From positions 1-32,000 of the forward strand of contig NZ_CP066018.1 of NCBI RefSeq assembly GCF_016127575.1: 32,000 nt of DNA, given 5' to 3'. Positions 16,141 through 26,747 of the stretch are shown in pieces. This DNA is from Cupriavidus necator. GTDB lineage: Bacteria; Pseudomonadota; Gammaproteobacteria; Burkholderiales; Burkholderiaceae. The notes below the pieces were generated by a model. The model was not told the origin of the DNA. It saw nothing but the letters and a program-made list of their open reading frames with translations, and made no database searches. Position 1 is the stretch's first letter; each line of letters begins with the position of its first letter. A program made the position numbers and the translations under genes.

Positions 16141-16251
16141 TTGACCCACCCACACGCCTGGGCTGGCCGAATCGGGCACAACACCGTCACGGCCCTGACA
16201 TCTAGGCGGCTTAATTTGCTAGACCTTGAAGTTCACCACTGGAGACCAGCA

Positions 16252-16830
16252 ATGATCCTCACCCCGGAACAAGTTGCAGCAGCGCAAAAGGCCAACCTCG
16301 AAACGCTGTTCGGCCTGACCACCAAGGCGTTTGAAGGCGTCGAAAAGCTCGTCGAGCTGAACCTGCAGGTCGTCAAGACTTCGTTCGCAGAAGGCGTTGA
16401 CAACGCCAAGAAGGCGCTGTCGGCCAAGGACGCACAGGAACTGCTGGCCATCCAGGCCGCAGCCGTGCAGCCGGTTGCCGAAAAGACCCTGGCCTACACC
16501 CGCCACCTGTATGAAATCGCTTCGGAAACCCAGAGCGAGTTCACCAAGGTAGCCGAGGCTCAACTGGCCGAAGGCTCGAAGAACGTGCAAGCGCTGGTCG
16601 AGAACCTCGCCAAGAACGCCCCGGCCGGTTCGGAATCGACCGTGGCCATCGTGAAGTCGGCGATCTCCGCTGCCAACAACGCCTACGAGTCGGTGCAGAA
16701 GGCGACCAAGCAAGCGGTCGAAATCGCTGAAACCAACTTCCAGGCTGCGGCTACGGCTGCCACCAAGGCTGCCCAGCAAGCCAGCGCCACGGCCCGTACG
16801 GCCACGGCAAAGAAGACGACGGCTGCCTGA
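16252..16830 (+). CDS. phaP1: Phasin (PHA granule-associated protein)
   Basis: This is the C-terminal 192 aa of track ORF 16141..16830 ([39 protein letters not shown]...[14 protein letters not shown]). A GGAGA SD lies 6 nt upstream. The Ala-rich amphipathic helical phasin_2-type sequence matches my recollection of R. eutropha PhaP1. Confidence 0.95.
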
Positions 16831-17112: not shown

Positions 17113-18201
17113 CTATTCTCCGATGCGCACAGGAATTCGCCGCCGCCCGAACTGACGCTCAAAATTCCCGAAACGTCCCGCAATCTGTGCAAAGCAGTCC
17201 GGGCAAGTTCCCGTGGGAGTCAGGCGATAGCTTTCGATCGCGTGCCAGTCGCGCACGATGAGCTGCGCGCGGCAAGCGGGGCAATGGGTGGTGGCACCGG
17301 CGGTGTCGTGCACGTTGCCGGTGTAGACGTAATGCAGTCCCTCCGCCAGCGCGTGCTTGCGGGCGCGCGCAAGGGTGGAACATGGTGTCGGCGGCACGTC
17401 GCGCATCTTGTAGTCCGGATGGAATGCGGTGAAGTGCAGCGGCACGTCGGGACCAAGCTCCCTGGCGATCCACCGGGCCTCGGCGCGAATCTCGTCATCG
17501 CTGTCGTTCTTGCCGGGAATGAGCAGCGTCGTGATCTCGAGCCAGACATCGGTTTCGTGCTTCAGGTACTGGAGCGTCTCCAGTACCGGCTGCAGGTGCG
17601 CCCCGGTGAAGGCAACATAGAACGCGTCGCTGAAGCCTTTCAGGTCGACGTTTGCCGCATCCATCCTGGCGTAGAAATCACGCCGCGCCTCGGCGCCCAT
17701 ATATCCTGCGGTCACCGCCACCGTCCTGATGCCCAGTTGGTGGCAGGCATCGGCTACGTCCATGGCGTACTCGGCGAAGATCACCGGGTCGTTGTAGGTG
17801 AAGGCCACGCTTTTGCAACCGTGCGCCGCCGCCGATGCGGCGATCGCTTCGGGCATGGCCGCATCGGCCAGGGTCTCCATCTCGCGCGATTTACTGATAT
17901 CCCAGTTCTGGCAGAACTTGCAGGCCAGATTGCAGCCGGCTGTGCCGAACGACAGGACGGCGGAGCCCGGGTAGAAGTGGTTGAGCGGCTTCTTTTCGAT
18001 CGGGTCGATGCAGAAGCCCGACGAGCGGCCATAGGCGGTCAGCACCATCCGATCGCCGACCCGCTGGCGCACGAAGCAAGCGCCGCGCTGCTCGCCATGC
18101 AGGCGGCAGTGGCGCGGGCACAGGTCGCATTGCATGCGGCCGTCATCCAGGAAATGCCAGTAGCGGCCGGAATAGCTCCCTGAACCGGGCACATCCTTCA
18201 T
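17113..18201 (-). CDS. AmmeMemoRadiSam-system-type radical SAM enzyme (PflA-like activase fold)
   Basis: Track ORF 17113..18201, 362 aa. The radical SAM motif is CNLACKFC (CX3CX2C). The N-terminal Cys set is CDLCPRHC...GACFVR, and the block GFCIDPIEKKPLNHFYPGS is typical of this family. Confidence 0.88.
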   Translation of the reverse strand: MKDVPGSGSYSGRYWHFLDDGRMQCDLCPRHCRLHGEQRGACFVRQRVGDRMVLTAYGRSSGFCIDPIEKKPLNHFYPGSAVLSFGTAGCNLACKFCQNWDISKSREMETLADAAMPEAIAASAAAHGCKSVAFTYNDPVIFAEYAMDVADACHQLGIRTVAVTAGYMGAEARRDFYARMDAANVDLKGFSDAFYVAFTGAHLQPVLETLQYLKHETDVWLEITTLLIPGKNDSDDEIRAEARWIARELGPDVPLHFTAFHPDYKMRDVPPTPCSTLARARKHALAEGLHYVYTGNVHDTAGATTHCPACRAQLIVRDWHAIESYRLTPTGTCPDCFAQIAGRFGNFERQFGRRRIPVRIGE

Positions 18202-18392
18202 GAATGGTCCTTGTGCGGCTTGCTGATCACGGTTACCGACAATACATCCAGGTCGAAGAACGGGCTGTCAGCCGGAGGCGGGGGCAATCCGGCACCCCAT
18301 CCGGCGATGGCATGCTTGATGTACTCTGCCATCTGCTCGTCGGCAACGTCCCTGGGCTGGTCGATCATCACGACATAGCGGCGAGTGCTCAT
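18198..18392 (-). CDS. Hypothetical 64-aa protein translationally coupled to the radical SAM gene
   Basis: This is the tail of track ORF 18198..18479 (MSTRRYVVMIDQPRDVADEQMAEYIKHAIAGWGAGLPPPPADSPFFDLDVLSVTVISKPHKDHS). An AAGGA SD lies 7 nt before the ATG at 18392. Its TGA (18200..18198) overlaps the radical SAM ATG (18201..18199). About three quarters of third codon positions are G/C. Confidence 0.55.
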   Translation of the reverse strand: MSTRRYVVMIDQPRDVADEQMAEYIKHAIAGWGAGLPPPPADSPFFDLDVLSVTVISKPHKDHS

Positions 18393-18486
18393 GGCAGATC
18401 CTTTATGGCGCCCATGACAGGCAACCATGGTGGCATCACGAACGTATCCGGTGTCATCAATGCCGGCGACCCCATTCACGCGACGT

Positions 18487-18924
18487 CTAGCGATAGACCA
18501 GCACCGGAATCTTGCTGTGGGTCAGTACCTTCAGGGTTTCGCTGCCGATCAACAGCGCCTTCACACCCCGGCGCCCATGAGACGCCATGACAATCAGGTC
18601 ACAATCGTTTTCTTCTGCAGCCTTGATGATGGCATCGTAGGGATGATCGTCGACCACGCTGCTGGTGTCGCAGGGCACGCCTGCCGCGGCGGCCTCTCGC
18701 GCGATGCCGTCGAGGTATTTCGATGCGTCCTCGAGGACAGCCTCTTCGAACTGCTCTCGCGTGTCGGTGAGCATTTCGGTGTGGTAAGTCGTGACGTGGA
18801 AATCCGGGCAGGCGCGCAGCGCCGTAATGCTGGCCTGCGTCTCCTGCGCGAACTCCAGTGCCTTGCGAAAGGCCGCTTCGGCCAGAGCGGAGCCATCTAC
18901 CGCAACAAGAAGATGCCTGAACAC
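18487..18924 (-). CDS. Universal stress protein (UspA family)
   Basis: This is the C-terminal 145 aa of track ORF 18487..19188. A GTG start at 18924 lies 6 nt after AAGGAGG. The family signature is (V)FRHLLVAVDGS...DLIVMASHGRRGVKALLIGSETLKVLTHSKIPVLVYR. Confidence 0.88.
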   Translation of the reverse strand: MFRHLLVAVDGSALAEAAFRKALEFAQETQASITALRACPDFHVTTYHTEMLTDTREQFEEAVLEDASKYLDGIAREAAAAGVPCDTSSVVDDHPYDAIIKAAEENDCDLIVMASHGRRGVKALLIGSETLKVLTHSKIPVLVYR

Positions 18925-19190
18925 GTCGTGCCTCCTTGTCAGCTGAACGGTAGCCACCGGGGGCCACCGGATCCCGCCAGCAGACATCCGGCAGCGATCG
19001 GCCGCGCGCGAATATGCAGCGCCGGCCTCGGTCGCCTTGGGGTGCATGGCGGCTGAATTCAGTATAGGCAGCGAAGGTCTTGCACCGCTCCTGTCGCAAT
19101 CTGCACCTTGGCTGCCGACGCGAGCGGTACTGGCAGGCAGACCTCGCGGACGCCGGCAAATTCTGGCGGTTAATTGCATAATTGGCAATG

Positions 19191-19218
19191 AAAAAGCCCG
19201 CCTGGGCAGGCGGGCTTT
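19191..19218 (-). terminator. Rho-independent terminator of the pdh operon
   Basis: On the minus strand the sequence reads AAAGCCCGCC - TGCCCA - GGCGGGCTTT, with the last three stem bases beginning a five-T run (TTTTT). It starts 21 nt after the pdhL stop. Confidence 0.85.
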
Positions 19219-19239: not shown

Positions 19240-21024
19240 TCAGCGCTTGCGCGGCGGCGGCACGTCAGTACACGTGCCTTCATAGATCTCCGCCGCCATG
19301 CCGATCGATTCACCCAGCGTCGGGTGCGGATGGATGGTCTTGCCGATATCCACCGCATCGGCGCCCATCTCGATCGCCAGGCAGACCTCGCTGATCAGGT
19401 CGCCTGCATGCGTGCCGACGATGCCGCCGCCGATCACGCGATGGGTTTCCTCGTCGAAGATCAGCTTGGTGAAGCCTTCGTCGCGGCCGTTGGCGATGGC
19501 GCGGCCCGATGCCGCCCAGGGGAACACGCCCTTGCTGTACTTGATCCCCTTCTCCTTGCACTCGTCTTCGGTCAGGCCGGCCCAGGCCACTTCCGGATCG
19601 GTGAAGGCCACCGACGGGATCTGCTTGGCATCGAAGTAAGCCTTCTCGCCATGCGCGGCCTCAGCGGCAACGTGGGCTTCATGCACCGCCTTGTGCGCCA
19701 GCATCGGCTGGCCGACGATATCGCCGATCGCAAAGATATGCGGCACATTGGTGCGCATCTGCTTGTCGACGTTGATAAAGCCGCGCTCGCTCACGGCCAC
19801 GCCGGCCTTCTCTGCGCTGATGCGCTTGCCGTTGGGCGAGCGGCCCACCGACACCAGCACCAGGTCGTAGCGCTGTGGCTCGGCCGGCGCGGCCTCGCCT
19901 TCGAACTTGACGTAGATGCCGTCCGGTTTGGCTTCCACGCCGACGGTTTTGGTCTTCAGCATGACCTTGCCGAAGCGGTCCTTGTTCTTCTTTTCCCAGA
20001 CCTTGACCAGGTCGCGGTCAGCACCGTTCATCAGGCCGTCGAGCATTTCCACGACATCGATGTCGGCACCCAGCGTGCTGTACACCGTGGCCATTTCCAG
20101 GCCGATGATGCCGCCGCCGATGACCAGCATCTTGTTGGGCACTTCGGGCAGCTCCAGCGCGCCGGTCGAGTCGACGATGCGCGGATCTTCCGGGATGAAC
20201 GGCAGTTTCACCGCCTGGCTGCCGGCAGCGATGATGGCCTTCTCGAAGCGGATCACGGTCTTCTTGCCGGTGCTGCGCTTGCCCTCGCCTTCGGTCAGCT
20301 CGACCTCCATGTGATGCGGGTCGAGGAAGTTGCCGATGCCGCGCACCACCTGCACCTTGCGCGCCTTGGCCATGCCGGCCAGGCCGCCGGTGAGCTTGCC
20401 GACCACCTGGTTCTTGTAGTGGCGCAGGCCGTCCAGGTCGATCTTGGCTTCGCCGAACAGGATGCCGTGGGCGGCCAGCGCCTTGGCTTCGTCGATCACG
20501 GCGGCGTTGTGCAGCAGCGCCTTGGACGGGATGCAGCCCACGTTCAGGCAGACGCCGCCAAGCGTGCTGTAGCGCTCCACCAGCACGGTATTCATGCCCA
20601 GGTCTGCGGCGCGGAAGGCGGCCGAGTAGCCGCCGGGGCCGGCGCCCAGCACCAGCATCTCGCACTGGATATCGGCGCCACCGCTGTGGCTGGCGGCAGC
20701 AGGAGCCGGTGCCGGAGCCGCCGCCGCGGGTGCGGGAGCCTGCGCCGGTGCCGGAGCTTGCGCGGGCGCCGGGGCGGCCGCGGCCTGCTGGGCCTCGATG
20801 GTGCAGATCACCGCGCCCTGGCCGACCTTGTCGCCGACCTTGACCTTGACCTCAACCACCTTGCCGGCGGCCGACGACGGCACGTCCATGCTGGCCTTGT
20901 CGGATTCCAGCACGATCAGGGACTGTTCCACCTCGACCGTGTCGCCGGCCTTGACCAGCACCTCGATCACTTCCACCGCGTCGAAATCGCCGATATCCGG
21001 CACCTTGACTTCGATCACACTCAT
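19240..21024 (-). CDS. pdhL: Dihydrolipoyl dehydrogenase (E3) with an N-terminal lipoyl domain
   Basis: Track ORF 19240..21024, 594 aa. Residues 1-~78 form a lipoyl domain ([15 protein letters not shown]...[12 protein letters not shown]). An Ala/Pro linker follows, then the FAD motif [13 protein letters not shown] and the redox disulfide [13 protein letters not shown]. Confidence 0.95.
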
Positions 21025-21057
21025 GTTTGCTCCTCTATGCGCGCCCGCCTCTCGGCT

Positions 21058-21735
21058 TCAGGGCGCGCCGTCGTTGTTGGTTGCCGCGCTGTCGGGTGCC
21101 GTACTGCCGGTTGCCGGATTGCCGCCCGTGGCACCGCCAGCCGGCGGTGCCGGCGCGGTGTCACCCTCGTGCAGCCGCACGGTGTGCACCTCGATCGGCC
21201 CCGCCGAACTCTTGTCGAACTCCACGCCCGCATCGACGCCGATGCGCGCGATCTCGCCCGCATCCAGGTCCGGCCGGTCATAGACCGCATGCATCGCGCC
21301 CAGCGCGTAGTTGCGGCCCGAGCCGATACCCCAGAAGCGGTCGAACGAAAACACCTCGCGGTACGAGTAGACGCCGAAGATGCCCGCCGGATTGGCGATC
21401 AGGCATACGATCTGCGACGACTCGTAGGGATCGTCCTCGTCTTCCTTGGTGTTGACGAAGTAGTCCGACTTCAGCTTCTCATGCACCTTCAGGAAGGTGC
21501 GGAACACGTCATCACGCGAGCCCAGCCGGCACTCTTCGCCAAGCCCCGCCAGCAGCGTGCGCATGACCGGGAAGTGCGCGGTGGTCCCGGCCAGCGCGAT
21601 GAAGCCGTCGCCTACCGGGAACACCTTCTGGTTGCGCTCGTAGGCGCGCGACAGGCGCGTGTCGCCAAAGGTGACCAGCGCATCTGCCGCGATGGCCACC
21701 TCGGCGCCCTTCCTCACGACCACGCAGGTAGTCAT
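21058..21735 (-). CDS. HslV / proteasome-beta-like Ntn-hydrolase-fold protein (ORF between E2 and E3 genes)
   Basis: Track ORF 21058..21801 trimmed to MTTCVVVRKGAEVAIAADALVTFGDTRL (ATG at 21735, GGGAG SD), giving 225 aa. The N-terminal Thr-Thr, the Lys in NQKVFPV and the GIGSG motif parallel HslV (TTIVSVRRNG...KKVRRLY...AIGSGG). The Ala/Gly/Pro/Thr-rich C-terminal tail has no HslV counterpart. Confidence 0.7.
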   Translation of the reverse strand: MTTCVVVRKGAEVAIAADALVTFGDTRLSRAYERNQKVFPVGDGFIALAGTTAHFPVMRTLLAGLGEECRLGSRDDVFRTFLKVHEKLKSDYFVNTKEDEDDPYESSQIVCLIANPAGIFGVYSYREVFSFDRFWGIGSGRNYALGAMHAVYDRPDLDAGEIARIGVDAGVEFDKSSAGPIEVHTVRLHEGDTAPAPPAGGATGGNPATGSTAPDSAATNNDGAP

Positions 21736-21807
21736 GGCTCGCTCCCGGTTGCGCGTGGTGCGCCGGGCAGGCCAGGCCGTCGGCCTGCCCGCCCGGCGCA
21801 ACCCCGC

Positions 21808-23469
21808 TTACAGCAGGATGCGGCGGAAATCCGCCAGCAGTTGCCCGAAGTACGTGTTGAAGCGCGCCGCTTCGGCACCGTCGATGACGCGGTGGTCCCA
21901 CGACAGCGACAGCGGCAGCGTCAGGCGCGGGGCGAACTGCTTGCCGTCCCACACCGGCTTCTGGTACGACTTGCACACGCCCATGATGGCCACTTCCGGC
22001 GCGTTGATGATCGGCGTGAAGTATGTGCCGCCGAGGCCGCCCAGCGAAGAGATCGAGAAGCAGCCGCCCTGCATCTGGTCCGGCTTGAGCTTGCCGTCGC
22101 GGGCCAGCTTGGCGAGCTCGCTCATTTCCTGGCTGATCTCCAGCACGCCCTTCTTGTCGGCGTCCTTGATCACCGGCACGACCAGGCCGTTCGGGGTGTC
22201 GGCGGCAAAACCGATGTTGAAGTACTTCTTCAGCACGAGGTTGTCACCATCGAGCGACGCGTTGAAGTTCGGGAACTTCTTCAGCGCCGCCACCGTGGCC
22301 TTGATCATGAACGCCAGCATCGTCACCTTGATGCCGGACTTCTCGTTTTCCTTGTTCAGCTGCAGGCGGAAGGCTTCCAGCTCGGTGATGTCCGCTTCGT
22401 CATGGTTGGTGACGTGCGGGATCATGACCCAGTTGCGGTGCAGGTTGGCACCCGAGATCTTCTTGATGCGCGACAGGGCCTTGCTTTCGACCTCGCCGAA
22501 GCGGGTGAAATCGACCTTCGGCCACGGCAGCAGGCCGAGCTCGCCACCACCGGCGCCAGCCGCGGCGGCCTGTGCGGGCGCGGCGGCCTGGCCGCTCATC
22601 ACGCCCTTGACGTAGCCCTGCACGTCTTCCTGGGTGATACGGCCCTTGGGGCCGGTGCCCGGCACGCGCGACACGTCCACGCCCAGCTCGCGTGCGAACT
22701 TGCGCACCGAGGGGCTGGCGTGGGCGGCCTTGCCGGTTACGCCAGCGGCGGCCGGCGCGGCAGCAGGTGCTGCGGCCGGTGCCGGGGCGGCGGCTGCGGG
22801 GGCCGGTGCCGGTGCGGGCGCGCTGGCAGCCGGAGCCGGTGCCGCGGCGGCAGCTGCCGGGGCGGCTGCTGCGGCGGCGCCTTCCAGGATCAGCAGCAGC
22901 GTGCCTTCGGCGACGTTGTCACCGACCTTGACCTTGACTTCCTTGACCACGCCGCCTTGCGGCGACGGCACGTCCATGGTGGCCTTGTCGGACTCCAGCG
23001 TCACCACGGCGTCTTCGGCGTTGATGGTGTCGCCCGCCTTGACGTGGACTTCGATGACCGGCACGGCGTCGTAGTCGCCGATATCGGGCACCTTGACTTC
23101 GATGGTGCCGCCACCGCCAGCGGCCGGGGCCGCGGCTGGGGCTGCTGCGGGGGCAGGAGCCGGTGCGGGGGCTGCGGCGGCCGGCGCCGGTGCTGCGGCA
23201 GCAGGGGCAGGTGCGGCGGCGGGCTCGTTGGCCGCCTCCAGCATCACCAGCACCGAGCCTTCGGACACGTTGTCGCCCACCTTGATGCGGACGTCCTTGA
23301 CCACGCCGGCCTGCGGCGAGGGCACGTCCATGGTGGCCTTGTCCGATTCCAGCGTCACCAGCGCGTCTTCCGCGTTGATGCTGTCGCCGGGTTTCACATG
23401 CACTTCGATGACGGGAACGGCGTCATAGTCGCCGATATCCGGCACCTTGATTTCAATCGCTTGACTCAT
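21808..23469 (-). CDS. pdhB: Dihydrolipoyllysine-residue acetyltransferase (E2) of pyruvate dehydrogenase
   Basis: Track ORF 21808..23469, 553 aa. It has two lipoyl domains ([11 protein letters not shown] twice) and Ala/Pro linkers. The E3/E1-binding domain is [25 protein letters not shown], and the catalytic domain carries SWDHRVIDG. Confidence 0.96.
22879..23469 (-). repeat. Intragenic tandem duplication encoding the two E2 lipoyl domains (period about 363 nt)
   Basis: Copy 1 is about 23236..23469 and copy 2 about 22879..23106. The peptides are nearly identical ([20 protein letters not shown][P/A]GD[S/T]INAEDA[L/V][16 protein letters not shown]...), and DNA similarity is visibly high. A third, more diverged copy opens pdhL (about 20791..21024). 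Confidence 0.85.
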
Positions 23470-23636
23470 TCAGTGTCTCCTGGGCAGGCCGGCACGCGCG
23501 ACATCCGCAAGCGGCGAGATTACCTTCGCCGCCCGCTTCTGTCACGCCGCCATGCCGCAAGGCGCCGTCCGGGCTCTGGCCGGGGCGCCCGCGGCACGGC
23601 GTTGCCGTACTGCGGGGGTTGGTGCTGGCTGCCGGA

Positions 23637-26324
23637 TCAGACCGACATCGGGTTGGGCTTGTTCGGGTCGAGGTTGTACTTCTTGATGGCCTCGGCAACC
23701 TTGTCGCGGCCGATCGCACCCTCGTCGGCCAGCGCCTTGAGCGCGGCCAGCGTGACCCAGTAGCGGTCCACTTCAAAGAAGTGGCGCAGCTTCTCGCGCG
23801 TGTCCGAGCGGCCGAAGCCGTCGGTGCCCAGCACCACGTAGCGGCGCGGCACGAACGGACGGATCTGCTCGGCAAACGCACGCACGTAGTCGGTGGAGGC
23901 GATCACCGGGCCGCGGGCCGACTTCAGGCTCTTGGCCACGTGCGATTCGCGCGGGGTCTCGGTCGGGTGCAGCAGGTTGAAGCGCTCGACGTCGTGGCCT
24001 TCGCGGGCCAGTTCGGTGAAGCTCGGGCAGCCCCACAGGTCCGACTCCACGCCCCAGTCCTTCTTGAGCAGGTCGGCAGCGGCGATCACCTCGCGGAAGA
24101 TCGTGCCCGAGCCCAGCAGCTGCACGCGCGGCGCGTTGCTGTTCTCGACACCCTTGCGGAACTGGTACATGCCCTTGACGATGTCCTGCTCCACGCCAGC
24201 CGGCATTTCCGGATGCTCGTAGTTCTCGTTCATCACCGTCAGGTAGTAGTAGACGTCTTCCTGCTCGGCGTACATGCGGCGCAGGCCGTCCTGCATGACC
24301 ACCGCCAGTTCGTACTGGAAGGTCGGGTCGTACGAGATGCAGTTCGGGATCGCGGCGTGGAACACGTGCGAGTGGCCGTCTTCATGCTGCAGGCCTTCGC
24401 CGTTCAGCGTGGTGCGGCCGGCGGTGCCGCCCAGCAGGAAGCCGCGCGAGCGCATGTCGGCAGCGGCCCAGCACAGGTCGCCGATACGCTGGATGCCGAA
24501 CATCGAGTAGTAGATGTAGAACGGGATCATCTGCACGCCGTGCGTCGAGTACGACGTGGCGGCCGCGATCCAGTCGCACATGGCGCCTGCTTCGTTGATG
24601 CCCTCCTGCAGCACCTGGCCAGTCTGCGATTCCTTGTAGAACATCAGCTGGTCATGGTCTTCCGGCACGTACTTCTGGCCTTCCTGGTTCCAGATGCCGA
24701 CCTGGCGGAACAGGCCTTCCATGCCGAAGGTGCGCGACTCGTCCGGCACGATGGGCACCACGTGCTTGCCGATCTGCTTGTCTTTCAGCAGCGTGTTCAG
24801 GATCCGCACGAAGGCCATGGTGGTGGACACTTCGCGGCCTTCGCCGGTGGCCTTCAGCAGCGCGTCGAACGCGGACAGCTGCGGGACCGGCAGCGCTTCG
24901 GCCTTCTGGCGGCGGGCCGGCAGGTAGCCGCCCAGGTTCTGCCGCGCCTGGCGCATGTATTCCAGTTCCTTCGAACCTTCCGGGAAGGTGATGTACGGCA
25001 CCTCTTCGAGCTGGTCGTCGGCAACGGGAAGATTGAACTGGTCGCGGAACTTGCGGATCGCGTCCACCGGCATCTTCTTCTGCTGGTGGGCCACGTTCAT
25101 GGCCTGGCCGGCGTCGCCCATGCCATAGCCCTTGATGGTCTTGGCCAGGATCAGCGTGGGCTGGCCCTTGTGCTCGCTGGCGGCCTTGTAGGCGGCGTAG
25201 ATCTTGTGCGGATCGTGGCCGCCGCGGTTCAGGCGCCAGATGTCGTCGTCGGACCAGTCGGCCACCATCGCCTTCAGCTCAGGCGTGTTGAAGAAGTGCT
25301 CGCGGACATAGGCGCCGTCCTTGGCCTTCATGGTCTGGTACTCGCCGTCGACGCATTCCATCATGCGCTTCATCAGCAGGCCCTTGGTGTCGCGCGCCAG
25401 CAGCGAATCCCACTTGCTGCCCCACACCACCTTGATCACGTTCCAGCCGGCACCGCGGAATTCGGATTCCAGTTCCTGGATGATCTTGCCGTTGCCGCGC
25501 ACCGGGCCATCCAGGCGCTGGAGGTTGCAGTTGATGACGAAGACCAGGTTGTCGAGCTTCTCGCGGCCGGCCATGCCGATCGCACCCAGCGATTCCGGCT
25601 CGTCGGTCTCGCCGTCGCCCAGGAAGGCCCAGACCTTGCGGTCGCCGGCCTTGGCCAGGCCGCGGCTGTCCAGGTACTTCATGAAGCGGGCCTGGTAGAT
25701 GGCCATGATCGGGCCCAGGCCCATCGACACCGTCGGGAACTGCCAGAAGTCCGGCATCAGCCACGGGTGCGGGTAGGACGAGATGCCCTTGCCGTCCACC
25801 TCCTGGCGGAAGTTGTCGAGCTGGTCCTGGGTCAGGCGGCCGAGCAGGAAGGCGCGCGAATACACGCCCGGAGCCGAGTGGCCCTGCACGAACACCAGGT
25901 CGCCGCCGCCGGCTTCCGACGGGGCGCGCCAGAAGTGGTTGTAGCCGACGTCATACAGCGTGGCCGCCGAGGCGAACGACGAGATGTGGCCGCCGACGTT
26001 GGTGTGCTTGTTGGCGCGCAGCACCATCGCCATGGCGTTCCAGCGGGTGTACGAGCGGATCCGGTGCTCGATGTCCTGGTCGCCGGGGATGCGGGCCTGC
26101 TGCTCGACCGGAATCGTGTTGATGTACTGCGTCTCGGCGTGGAACGGCTGGGTCACGCCGTTCACGCGTGCGTATTCGATCTGCTTGTCGATCAGGAAAG
26201 CGGCGCGCGCCGGACCTTCGGCGGCCAGGACGCCCTGCAGGGCGTCGAGCCATTCATGGGTTTCCTGGGGATCGGCGTCGTTGGCGCTCGAGGCGCCGAG
26301 AATCTGCTCTGGTACGGCGGACAT
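23637..26324 (-). CDS. pdhA: Pyruvate dehydrogenase E1 component (homodimeric AceE type)
   Basis: Track ORF 23637..26546 trimmed to MSAVPEQILGASSANDADPQETHEWLDALQGVL (ATG at 26324, AGGAG SD), giving 895 aa. The ThDP-binding region is GDGETDEPES...NCNLQRLDGPVRGN. Confidence 0.96.
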   Translation of the reverse strand: MSAVPEQILGASSANDADPQETHEWLDALQGVLAAEGPARAAFLIDKQIEYARVNGVTQPFHAETQYINTIPVEQQARIPGDQDIEHRIRSYTRWNAMAMVLRANKHTNVGGHISSFASAATLYDVGYNHFWRAPSEAGGGDLVFVQGHSAPGVYSRAFLLGRLTQDQLDNFRQEVDGKGISSYPHPWLMPDFWQFPTVSMGLGPIMAIYQARFMKYLDSRGLAKAGDRKVWAFLGDGETDEPESLGAIGMAGREKLDNLVFVINCNLQRLDGPVRGNGKIIQELESEFRGAGWNVIKVVWGSKWDSLLARDTKGLLMKRMMECVDGEYQTMKAKDGAYVREHFFNTPELKAMVADWSDDDIWRLNRGGHDPHKIYAAYKAASEHKGQPTLILAKTIKGYGMGDAGQAMNVAHQQKKMPVDAIRKFRDQFNLPVADDQLEEVPYITFPEGSKELEYMRQARQNLGGYLPARRQKAEALPVPQLSAFDALLKATGEGREVSTTMAFVRILNTLLKDKQIGKHVVPIVPDESRTFGMEGLFRQVGIWNQEGQKYVPEDHDQLMFYKESQTGQVLQEGINEAGAMCDWIAAATSYSTHGVQMIPFYIYYSMFGIQRIGDLCWAAADMRSRGFLLGGTAGRTTLNGEGLQHEDGHSHVFHAAIPNCISYDPTFQYELAVVMQDGLRRMYAEQEDVYYYLTVMNENYEHPEMPAGVEQDIVKGMYQFRKGVENSNAPRVQLLGSGTIFREVIAAADLLKKDWGVESDLWGCPSFTELAREGHDVERFNLLHPTETPRESHVAKSLKSARGPVIASTDYVRAFAEQIRPFVPRRYVVLGTDGFGRSDTREKLRHFFEVDRYWVTLAALKALADEGAIGRDKVAEAIKKYNLDPNKPNPMSV

Positions 26325-26517
26325 GACTGTCTCCTGGGTGAATTCTTTGCATCCGCGCCCGCGCTGGCAGCGCCCGGACACGACTTTACGTATGACTCGC
26401 ACCGACTTGCGGATCCGGCACCATGCCGCCTTGCATCGGGGCCGCCGCCGGGAAACCTGTTCCGGTTTCTCCGCGCGGCAGGCGCATGGCTGCCGCCCGC
26501 ATTCTTGGGTCGAACCG

Positions 26518-26546
26518 ATTCTATGGAAGCCCAAAGTCCAGCACAA
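26518..26546 (-). promoter_or_regulatory. Candidate sigma70 promoter for pdhA
   Basis: On the minus strand: TTGTGC (26546..26541), 17-nt spacer, TAGAAT (26523..26518). This would give a leader of roughly 185 nt. Confidence 0.35.
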
Positions 26547-26554
26547 GTGAAATT

Positions 26555-26582
26555 TTCAAATTGCGGTATCGTTTTTTATAAT
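26555..26582 (+). promoter_or_regulatory. Candidate sigma70 promoter for the sensor kinase operon
   Basis: TTCAAA (26555..26560), 16-nt spacer, TATAAT (26577..26582). It lies in the only AT-rich stretch of the 423-bp divergent region. Confidence 0.4.
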
Positions 26583-26747
26583 GTGGAATTATGCGGCGGC
26601 GCACCAAGAATCACTGCCCGGCTGCCCCGCCATGCGCCATAAGCCTACCCGCCCCGGCCGCAGCAGCAATGTTTTCATTGGCGCTTTCCCCAAGCGACGC
26701 ACCGCAATAATCTCGGTACACTGGTCGGTCAGCCGTCAATCCCTCCC

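Follow-up and report, generated by a model that had tools for sequence, protein, structure and literature searches.

A Betaproteobacteria proteasome homologue encoded between the E2 and E3 genes of the pyruvate dehydrogenase operon in Cupriavidus necator

Organization of the locus

The DNA considered here comprises the first 32,000 nucleotides of contig NZ_CP066018.1 of Cupriavidus necator (the window, meaning this whole stretch), in which a pyruvate dehydrogenase (PDH) operon carries a 225-codon open reading frame (ORF) between the E2 gene pdhB and the E3 gene pdhL. Judged by its sequence, the product of this ORF is clearly orthologous to BPH (Betaproteobacteria proteasome homologue). The E1 gene pdhA, pdhB, the BPH gene, and pdhL are all located on the minus strand (Table 1). 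In the ORF list and the translation, the BPH gene begins with an ATG at 21733-21735 and closes with a TGA at 21058-21060, and its product of 225 amino acids starts with MTTCVVV (MTTCVVVRKGAEVAIAAD...) and ends with ...AATNNDGAP. The boundary of the E2 ORF at 21808 leaves a gap of 72 nt in front of the gene, and the start of the E3 ORF at 21024 leaves a gap of 33 nt behind it. The ORF, its N-terminus, its tail, its own Shine-Dalgarno sequence, and both gaps are just as the first-pass annotation, an earlier model-made reading of the same DNA, had described them.

An alternative TTG start at 21801, yielding 247 amino acids with a propeptide-like N-terminal extension of 22 residues, was rejected for BPH because the upstream spacer varies in both length (30-178 nt) and sequence across 79 orthologous loci, because all 80 orthologues begin with MTT(C/V), and because this TTG falls within the hairpin that follows pdhB. 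Thr thus stands immediately after the start Met, without a propeptide, in 80/80 orthologues, which is a feature of BPH family members. On the opposite strand, two long ORFs face the pdh genes (19324..23763, plus strand, 1479 aa; 23619..26642, plus strand, 1007 aa); these are not genes but a common by-product of high G+C content.

The locus has an older history. An abstract by Hein and Steinbuchel in J Bacteriol of 1994 is said to list, for Alcaligenes eutrophus, pdhA of 2,685 bp, pdhB of 1,659 bp, an ORF3 of 675 bp with unknown function, and pdhL of 1,782 bp. These lengths equal those of the window ORFs exactly, and the BPH gene is presumably this ORF3.

Table 1. Features of the BPH locus and its surroundings (positions are those of the window; alignments A1 and A2 are described in the text)
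Feature	Position	Strand	Basis or remark
pdhA, E1 pyruvate dehydrogenase, 895 aa, starts MSAVPEQ	23637..26324	-	ORF; matched in loci
pdhB, E2 dihydrolipoamide acetyltransferase, two lipoyl domains, 553 aa	21808..23469	-	ORF, translation
Strong G+C-rich hairpin without U tract, directly after the pdhB stop	21757..21803	-	Folding versus shuffles
BPH Shine-Dalgarno GGGAG	21742..21746	-	Read from sequence; 6 nt ahead of ATG
BPH gene (ORF3 / H16_A1376-type)	21058..21735	-	225 codons + TGA; ORF, translation, PF00227, PDB, Foldseek
Thr2 codon (mature Thr1; catalytic nucleophile once the start Met is removed)	21730..21732	-	Invariant in A1 and A2
Asp18 codon (mature Asp17; orients the catalytic Lys)	21682..21684	-	A1/A2; role from PMC5777263
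Lys37 codon (mature Lys36; equivalent to proteasome Lys33 and Lys37 of Thiobacillus denitrificans BPH)	21625..21627	-	HslV alignment; invariant
Gly50 codon (mature Gly49; oxyanion-hole Gly)	21586..21588	-	Invariant; role from PMC5777263
Acidic elongated pore loop KEDEDDPYESS, residues 97-107	21415..21447	-	EDEDD run as in C. metallidurans BPH (E97-D101)
Gly138-Ser139-Gly140 active-site loop (GGC TCG GGC)	21316..21324	-	Invariant; aligned to HslV GSG
Low-complexity C-terminal tail, residues 190-225	21061..21168	-	Predicted disordered; predicted local distance difference test (pLDDT) < 50 from residue 195
Terminal octapeptide ATNNDGAP, encoded by GCAACCAACAACGACGGCGCGCCC	21061..21084	-	39/42 Cupriavidus-type sequences
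Hairpin spanning the BPH stop codon, 5' of the pdhL Shine-Dalgarno	21039..21068	-	Folding; outer stem conserved
pdhL Shine-Dalgarno GAGGAG	21030-21035	-	Just 3' of the stop-spanning hairpin
pdhL, E3 dihydrolipoamide dehydrogenase, N-terminal lipoyl domain, 594 aa	19240..21024	-	ORF, translation
Terminator-like hairpin and T run downstream of pdhL (probable operon end)	19196..19211	-	Pattern scan alone
Phasin_2 family gene (PhaP-type polyhydroxybutyrate granule protein)	16141..16830	+	Probable true start near 16252

Family identity, active site, and pore loop

The first-pass annotation had proposed an HslV/proteasome-beta-like N-terminal nucleophile (Ntn) hydrolase and had guessed at membership of the BPH family; the Pfam, Protein Data Bank (PDB), and Foldseek searches agree on the former, and the latter is borne out by the order of the matches. 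The protein matches Pfam PF00227 (Proteasome) with an E-value of 1.6e-7, exceeding the gathering score. In a phmmer search of PDB sequences, the best match is 5OVU, the 'Beta-proteobacteria proteasome homologue' of Cupriavidus metallidurans (E 1.1e-111), with about 87-90% identity over residues 2-190 (the 189-aa core), and the second is 5OVS/5OVT, the BPH of Thiobacillus denitrificans (E 2.5e-38), whereas the best HslV match, 1M4Y, reaches merely 4.8e-5. Both NCBIfam equivalog models for HslV score the protein far below their cut-offs (NF003964, 31.6 bits against 137; TIGR03692, 30.3 bits against 157.75). The AlphaFold2 model has a mean pLDDT of 75.6 with a confident core, and the low-confidence parts are residues 22-33, the pore loop (residues 97-107), and the tail (residues 195-225). 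With this model, Foldseek returns 5OVU first (4.6e-29), then 5OVS/5OVT, HslV structures, and 20S beta subunits (from about E 1e-8). Anbu structures appear neither among the phmmer matches nor in the top 50 Foldseek matches.

The active site was followed in two alignments, one of 17 sequences including Thiobacillus BPH and reaching down to 41% identity (A1) and one of 31 closer relatives (A2). Thr2, Lys37, Gly50, and Ser139 are invariant in both; Asp18 is unchanged throughout A1 and reaches at least 90% conservation in A2. In the HMMER alignment with HslV 1M4Y, the catalytic Lys of HslV is paired with K37 within NQKVFPV and its Gly-Ser-Gly with G138-S139-G140 within GIGSG, in keeping with the assignment of both motifs from the bare sequence. 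In addition, the protein possesses the long, strongly acidic pore loop between H2 and S7 that characterizes BPH; the loop is invariant in the alignments, and its low pLDDT is expected of a flexible loop. By analogy with the orthologue of about 87-90% identity, the protein probably assembles into a homo-tetradecameric double ring.

The family is large, with 3207 homologues at E <= 1e-5, and its public records are often mislabelled. Many orthologues are named 'MFS transporter' in RefSeq and UniRef (for example P0009, P0011, P0016, P0019, P0025, P0033, and P0048) and others 'HslV'; the gene of strain H16, H16_A1376, is labelled hslV. Both labels are propagated misannotations of a soluble protein with the proteasome fold.

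Conservation of the operon context

The genomic context was scanned with one genome per species, which gave at least 579 BPH loci, and the best 80 of these were analysed; the arginine-linked clade is represented by one Thiobacillus look-up. In all of the 80 closest loci, which derive from Cupriavidus, Ralstonia, Pandoraea, Noviherbaspirillum, Collimonas, Herbaspirillum, and related metagenome-assembled genomes, the genes for E2, BPH (68-98% identical), and E3 follow one another on one strand, and E1 precedes them wherever the contig extends that far (73/80). The same E1-E2-BPH-E3 arrangement is found in a tail-bearing metagenomic relative (P0042). The orthologues at the pdhB position carry Biotin_lipoyl, E3_binding, and 2-oxoacid_dh domains. 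Matches to pdhL begin at residue 1 or 2 and cover essentially the entire protein wherever the contig spans the gene end; the E3 of the closest loci therefore carries the lipoyl domain.

In the case of Thiobacillus sp., the BPH gene (P0173; locus L081, 6001..6576) does not lie in a PDH operon but in an argD-argF-DUF2283-argG-Ppnp-BPH-YajQ-DJ-1/PfpI cluster, so the PDH linkage is clade-specific and not family-wide. The location between the E2 and E3 genes thus holds in 80/80 of the closest genomes but not in the Thiobacillus locus; the linkage is very stable within one large clade, and the literature agrees that it does not extend to the whole family. The PDH context of the window is one of the three published BPH operon contexts (PDH, arginine biosynthesis, and Hsp33). 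In the Thiobacillus cluster, all genes are on the same strand and tightly spaced, and a CBS protein is also encoded downstream. The neighbouring DJ-1/PfpI protein belongs to a deglycase or peptidase family, and a stress role shared with BPH is possible.

As the first-pass annotation had observed, there is no unfoldase gene adjacent to the BPH gene, its flanks being pdhB and pdhL. Of the 54 window ORFs with 200 aa or more, 29 were scanned, chosen at one or two per region, together with one ORF of 93 aa; none of these 30 has an AAA+/HslU-like domain, and no AAA+ gene occurs in the Thiobacillus or metagenome BPH loci examined.

An insertion of about 100 nt between pdhB and the BPH gene widens the spacer to about 160-180 nt in several genomes of Cupriavidus and Ralstonia (loci L011, L018, L021, L025, L029, L031, L034, L038, and L039). 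The insertion is highly structured and repeat-like (...GAUUCUGGCGUCGUUGCGCGGCC...GGCCGCGCGCCUAGCCAGAAC...) and looks like a small mobile element or one of the repetitive extragenic palindromic type.

Further away in the window, the proteins encoded by other neighbours include a Usp protein, a radical-SAM enzyme, a phasin, a deacetylase-family protein, a PAS histidine kinase with a LuxR-type regulator, and FolD. The phasin gene is situated about 2.4 kb downstream of the pdh operon, and between the two lie the genes for the Usp protein (18487..19188) and the radical-SAM enzyme (17113..18201) and the ORF of 93 aa (18198..18479), which has no family match. The phasin gene and the neighbouring places of H16_A1376 and pdhL in the H16 annotation both agree with a chromosome of the C. 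necator H16 type.

Expression and the hairpin behind pdhB

Published RNA sequencing of R. eutropha H16 (Shimizu et al. 2013, PMC3734047, Table S3) includes H16_A1376, which in that annotation adjoins pdhL (H16_A1377). The mRNA of H16_A1376 falls from 12,023 reads per kilobase per million (RPKM) during growth to 731 in the polyhydroxybutyrate (PHB) production phase (log2 -4.04), and that of pdhL falls from 15,507 to 849 RPKM (log2 -4.19); pdhA1 and pdhB do not reach the log2 < -4 threshold of this table. The two mRNAs are therefore similar in abundance and undergo the same change of roughly 16-18-fold, and this close tracking supports the co-transcription of the BPH gene with pdhL. Co-transcription with PDH genes, which had been expected from the short gaps, accordingly gains ground from the pdhL-like profile, and the data suggest that the BPH gene and pdhL behave as a sub-unit apart from pdhA-pdhB. 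A full-text literature search returned no paper that names H16_A1376 in its text; the gene was found solely in a supplement. The drop of about 16-fold sits awkwardly with the 'constitutively expressed' BPH genes of PMC5777263.

Directly behind pdhB, the 91-nt stretch that contains the G+C-rich hairpin folds with -54.1 kcal/mol (z -3.2), and 0/200 shuffles are as stable. A comparable hairpin of unrelated sequence follows pdhB in 78/79 orthologous loci across genera. It is plausible that this hairpin forms a boundary, acting as a processing or stabilizing site or as a partial terminator, and it may split the operon into a pdhA-pdhB unit and a BPH-pdhL unit; such a split fits the RNA sequencing data, in which only the BPH gene and pdhL drop more than 16-fold. 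Within the 72-nt gap and close to it, a scan with the sigma-70 pattern, which does not extend to other promoter types, revealed nothing promoter-like on the coding strand. Searches of Rfam, over the whole window at gathering thresholds and over 20800-22000 at E <= 1, gave nothing credible for this hairpin or for the one that spans the BPH stop codon.

C-terminal tail and conserved terminal motif

The tail is limited to Cupriavidus-type sequences, whose proteins measure 198-233 aa; in Ralstonia and most other genera, the protein stops at 188-193 aa. Beyond the core (...VRLH/Q), the Cupriavidus proteins carry 8-52 residues of variable composition, which are rich in Gly, Ala, Pro, and Thr in the window, strongly acidic in some C. 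necator strains, and rich in Gln and Pro in others. The first-pass annotation had also seen in the tail an echo of the Ala/Pro linkers of E2 and E3. A low-complexity tail is indeed present, but its likeness to the linkers is weak and not conserved: Ala and Pro make up 42% of the BPH tail against 77-86% of the E2 and E3 linkers, and with acidic or Gln/Pro-rich tails in other species the echo was rejected as a meaningful one.

After the hypervariable stretch, nearly every Cupriavidus tail ends with ATNN(D/E)GA(P/A) (loci L001-L041), and in the 198-aa BPH of the C. metallidurans type (P0008, L031) a single residue (Val) separates the core from this terminal motif. The conservation of the motif extends to its nucleotides. 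Among 42 Cupriavidus-type sequences, the mean pairwise identity at third codon positions is 0.89 in the terminal motif and 0.69 in the core, where 14 of the 129 invariant degenerate amino-acid columns keep one codon. In the motif, the GCA and GCG codons are unchanged in 39/39 sequences and ACC in 38/39; GCA is a minor Ala codon in G+C-rich genomes. This pattern suggests that the last eight codons act in cis, as an RNA or DNA element ahead of pdhL, and are translated incidentally.

The last codons also contribute to a hairpin around the stop codon. Its 5' arm consists of the last codons (GGCGCGCCC), the loop holds the stop, and the 3' arm stands just before the pdhL Shine-Dalgarno sequence. The hairpin of the window alone is not significant (z -0.9). 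Across 41 sequences (alignment A3), the outer stem GCGCG/CGCGC is near-invariant, with three of its five pairs unchanged in 41/41, and inspection of the sequences by eye, not a statistic, points to an inner stem that changes with the clade but stays paired. RNAalifold applied to the 3' end recovers the invariant outer stem alone, with almost no covariation (term -0.17). Together with the stop-spanning hairpin, the last eight codons might serve a double purpose, coding for the end of the protein and setting the translation of pdhL. In other genera, a hairpin of unrelated sequence occurs in the spacer between the BPH and E3 genes.

The origin of such a tail is illustrated by Pandoraea iniqua (L061), in which, compared with loci L059, L065, L070, and L073, the TAA stop is lost and BPH is extended by eight residues (YMRQGDPA) across the whole spacer, so that the new BPH TGA overlaps the E3 ATG (ATGA). 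This stop loss therefore shows how such tails can arise. On the reading adopted here, whose odds are about even, the Cupriavidus tail is largely translated spacer, and its conserved end is held fixed by its place in the pdhL leader; the motif may instead serve as a peptide in docking.

Comparison with known proteasome-like systems

The closest characterized protein is C. metallidurans BPH (Rmet_1198, 5OVU), which shares with the window protein the core (about 87-90% identical), the active site, the EDEDD loop, the position between E2 and E3 in the PDH operon, and the C-terminus ...ATNNDGA(A/P). The window protein is 27 residues longer and carries a hypervariable Gly/Ala/Pro/Thr-rich spacer between the core and the motif. 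T. denitrificans BPH (Tbd_1847, 5OVS/5OVT), which serves as reference for both the tetradecameric barrel and the epoxomicin adduct, belongs to the same family (39-41% identity) with the same catalytic residues, but it lacks a C-terminal tail and has an additional residue ahead of the catalytic Lys. The BPH of Thiobacillus sp. P0173 is about 90% identical to that of T. denitrificans, and its gene stands in the arg cluster, unlike that of the window in the PDH operon.

HslV (ClpQ), from which BPH descends (PMC5777263), shares the Ntn-hydrolase proteasome fold, the N-terminal Thr without a propeptide, the Lys, the Gly-Ser-Gly, and the double homo-oligomeric ring. However, HslV structures are only 18-24% identical to the window BPH in Foldseek, and HslV is an HslU-dependent dodecamer with a short basic pore loop, whereas the pore loop of the window BPH is long and acidic and its gene is flanked by pdhB and pdhL with no hslU found nearby. 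The residues of HslV that form the HslU interface are not conserved in BPH (PMC5777263). The 20S beta subunits, Anbu, and connectase likewise share the fold and the Thr1-Lys-Asp catalytic arrangement with BPH, but 20S beta subunits are made with propeptides and depend on alpha rings, the ring of Anbu is open and split, and connectase works as a monomer and is a ligase.

Discussion

BPH was named by Valas and Bourne in 2008 (PMC3235984), who found it in one operon with the three PDH genes in Ralstonia and Polaromonas and proposed that degradation of the PDH complex by BPH might stand in for PdhR-type repression. Fuchs et al. (2018, PMC5777263) determined the crystal structures of Td-BPH (T. denitrificans) and Cm-BPH (C. 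metallidurans), found tetradecameric double rings in solution, and showed that the start Met is removed and that Thr1 is covalently modified by epoxomicin and MG132. The same study described the three operon contexts, with no candidate ATPase, and called BPH a possible 'vestige of the past'. Outside Betaproteobacteria, an N-terminal Ser replaces the Thr, and a 2021 survey puts BPH centrally within the HslV-like group of proteasome homologues.

The window gene very probably encodes a BPH orthologue, a descendant of HslV that works as a gated, ATP-independent peptidase, and belongs with pdhL to the distal part of the pdh operon. From what is known of near-identical proteins (the orthologues behind these steps being 39-90% identical), methionine aminopeptidase would remove Met1 and expose Thr1, and the subunits would assemble without a propeptide into a two-ring barrel of 14 subunits with the active sites inside. 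Thr1, Asp17, Lys36, Gly49, and Ser138 would then form a classical proteasome-type site reactive with epoxomicin and MG132, and the acidic EDEDD pore loop would line the entrance and close over a bound ligand. The window BPH would thus act as an ATP-independent gated peptidase of narrow specificity on substrates that are unfolded or peptide-sized, probably non-acidic, and taken in without an unfoldase. The BPH gene and pdhL would form the distal operon part behind the post-pdhB hairpin, with pdhL-like expression in growth. The tail would be a disordered, Cupriavidus-specific appendage whose last eight codons are probably constrained mainly as RNA leader of pdhL and not as peptide.

Several points weigh against this picture. 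Neither Cm-BPH nor Td-BPH cleaves standard peptides or casein, whether sodium dodecyl sulfate (SDS) is present or not, and pore-loop mutants behave likewise (PMC5777263); since no turnover by BPH has ever been measured, the peptidase mechanism rests on the chemistry of the active site. The 2x7 assembly of the window protein, with its longer tail, is presumed by analogy with the orthologue. Co-transcription is deduced from co-regulation and gene spacing, and the post-pdhB hairpin could mark a separate transcript end or processing site. As for the terminal motif, the RNA-level view is founded on conservation statistics, and the few synonymous changes within it (AAC to AAT, GAC to GAT) are also consistent with a degree of peptide-level selection.

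Of the other explanations, the one that fares best is a protease dedicated to PDH, clearing damaged or surplus E1, E2, and E3 or regulating the complex by degradation instead of a PdhR-type repressor. The position between E2 and E3, kept in 80/80 of the closest genomes across several genera and in metagenome contigs, speaks for it, as do the mRNA abundance and regulation nearly equal to those of pdhL and the published proposal itself (PMC3235984). However, pull-downs in C. metallidurans, with and without a crosslinker and ATPgammaS, recovered no subunits of the PDH complex and no HslU, and the patterns of carbonylated proteins were unaffected by BPH in vitro or in vivo (PMC5777263). Across the wider family, BPH has no fixed tie to PDH, since the Thiobacillus gene stands in the argD-argF-argG cluster and those of other species are linked to Hsp33, and the constraint on the terminal motif looks nucleotide-level, not peptide-level. 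On the other side, the pull-down baits bore C-terminal tags (PMC5777263), which would mask the conserved C-terminus, and the negative result is therefore not airtight. On balance, a PDH-dedicated protease is rather unlikely, and the quality-control role for PDH that the first-pass annotation had floated as a speculation finds no support here and met negative results in the published tests.

A more specific form of this idea, that BPH of Burkholderiaceae and Oxalobacteraceae is a compartmentalized peptidase acting on the PDH complex, for example on the flexible linkers or lipoyl arms of E2 and PdhL, with the free C-terminus ATNNDGA(P/A), tethered by the disordered Cupriavidus spacer, as a docking or regulatory element that the pull-downs missed through their C-terminal tags, is quite unlikely. 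Its lesser variant is the double role, coding and regulatory, that the last eight codons and the stop-spanning hairpin might have.

It is very improbable that BPH is non-proteolytic in vivo, using Thr1 for transpeptidase or ligase chemistry of the connectase kind or for amide hydrolysis, such as that of lipoyl-lysine; this lipoamidase idea, also floated as a speculation in the first-pass annotation, finds no support here. The missing peptidase activity on a wide substrate panel (PMC5777263), the existence of connectase, a sequence-specific ligase, within the proteasome-like family (PMC7980362, PMC8665760), and the place of the gene beside three lipoylated or lipoyl-using proteins would all suit such chemistry. 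Yet epoxomicin binds as a canonical beta strand, in the manner of a substrate, and the S1 pocket is hydrophobic (PMC5777263), connectase is a monomer with helical insertions and not a closed barrel, a folded lipoyl domain would need to pass through the acidic gated pore, and the Thiobacillus context has no link to lipoate metabolism. Similarly, a vestigial or near-neutral passenger gene, retained mainly for the pdhL expression signals in its sequence, would agree with the 'vestige' remark and with the conserved RNA-level features at the 3' end of the ORF and in both flanking spacers, but it is scarcely credible in view of the strong purifying selection on the protein core (129 degenerate amino-acid columns invariant across the 42 sequences, 14 of them with the same codon), the catalytic residues invariant out to 41% identity, the thousands of homologues, and the high mRNA level in the growth phase.

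The BPH family, its structure, its PDH-operon context, and the idea of PDH degradation were already published in 2008 and 2018, so that the window case is a rediscovery; it gives no new functional lead on BPH and is unsurprising to a specialist. What may be new is modest: how the Cupriavidus tail is built and conserved at the nucleotide level, the conserved hairpins between the cistrons, the joint regulation with pdhL in published RNA sequencing data, and the widespread misannotation. The public annotation of the BPH gene is poor, as the hslV label in H16 and the 'MFS transporter' label of many RefSeq entries show. A functional lead would be useful, BPH belonging to the small set of self-compartmentalizing, protease-like bacterial complexes that still lack a known substrate or role. 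C. necator is genetically tractable and transcribes its BPH gene abundantly, which makes it suited to knockout and substrate-trapping work, and in interaction studies of BPH the C-terminus is best left free.

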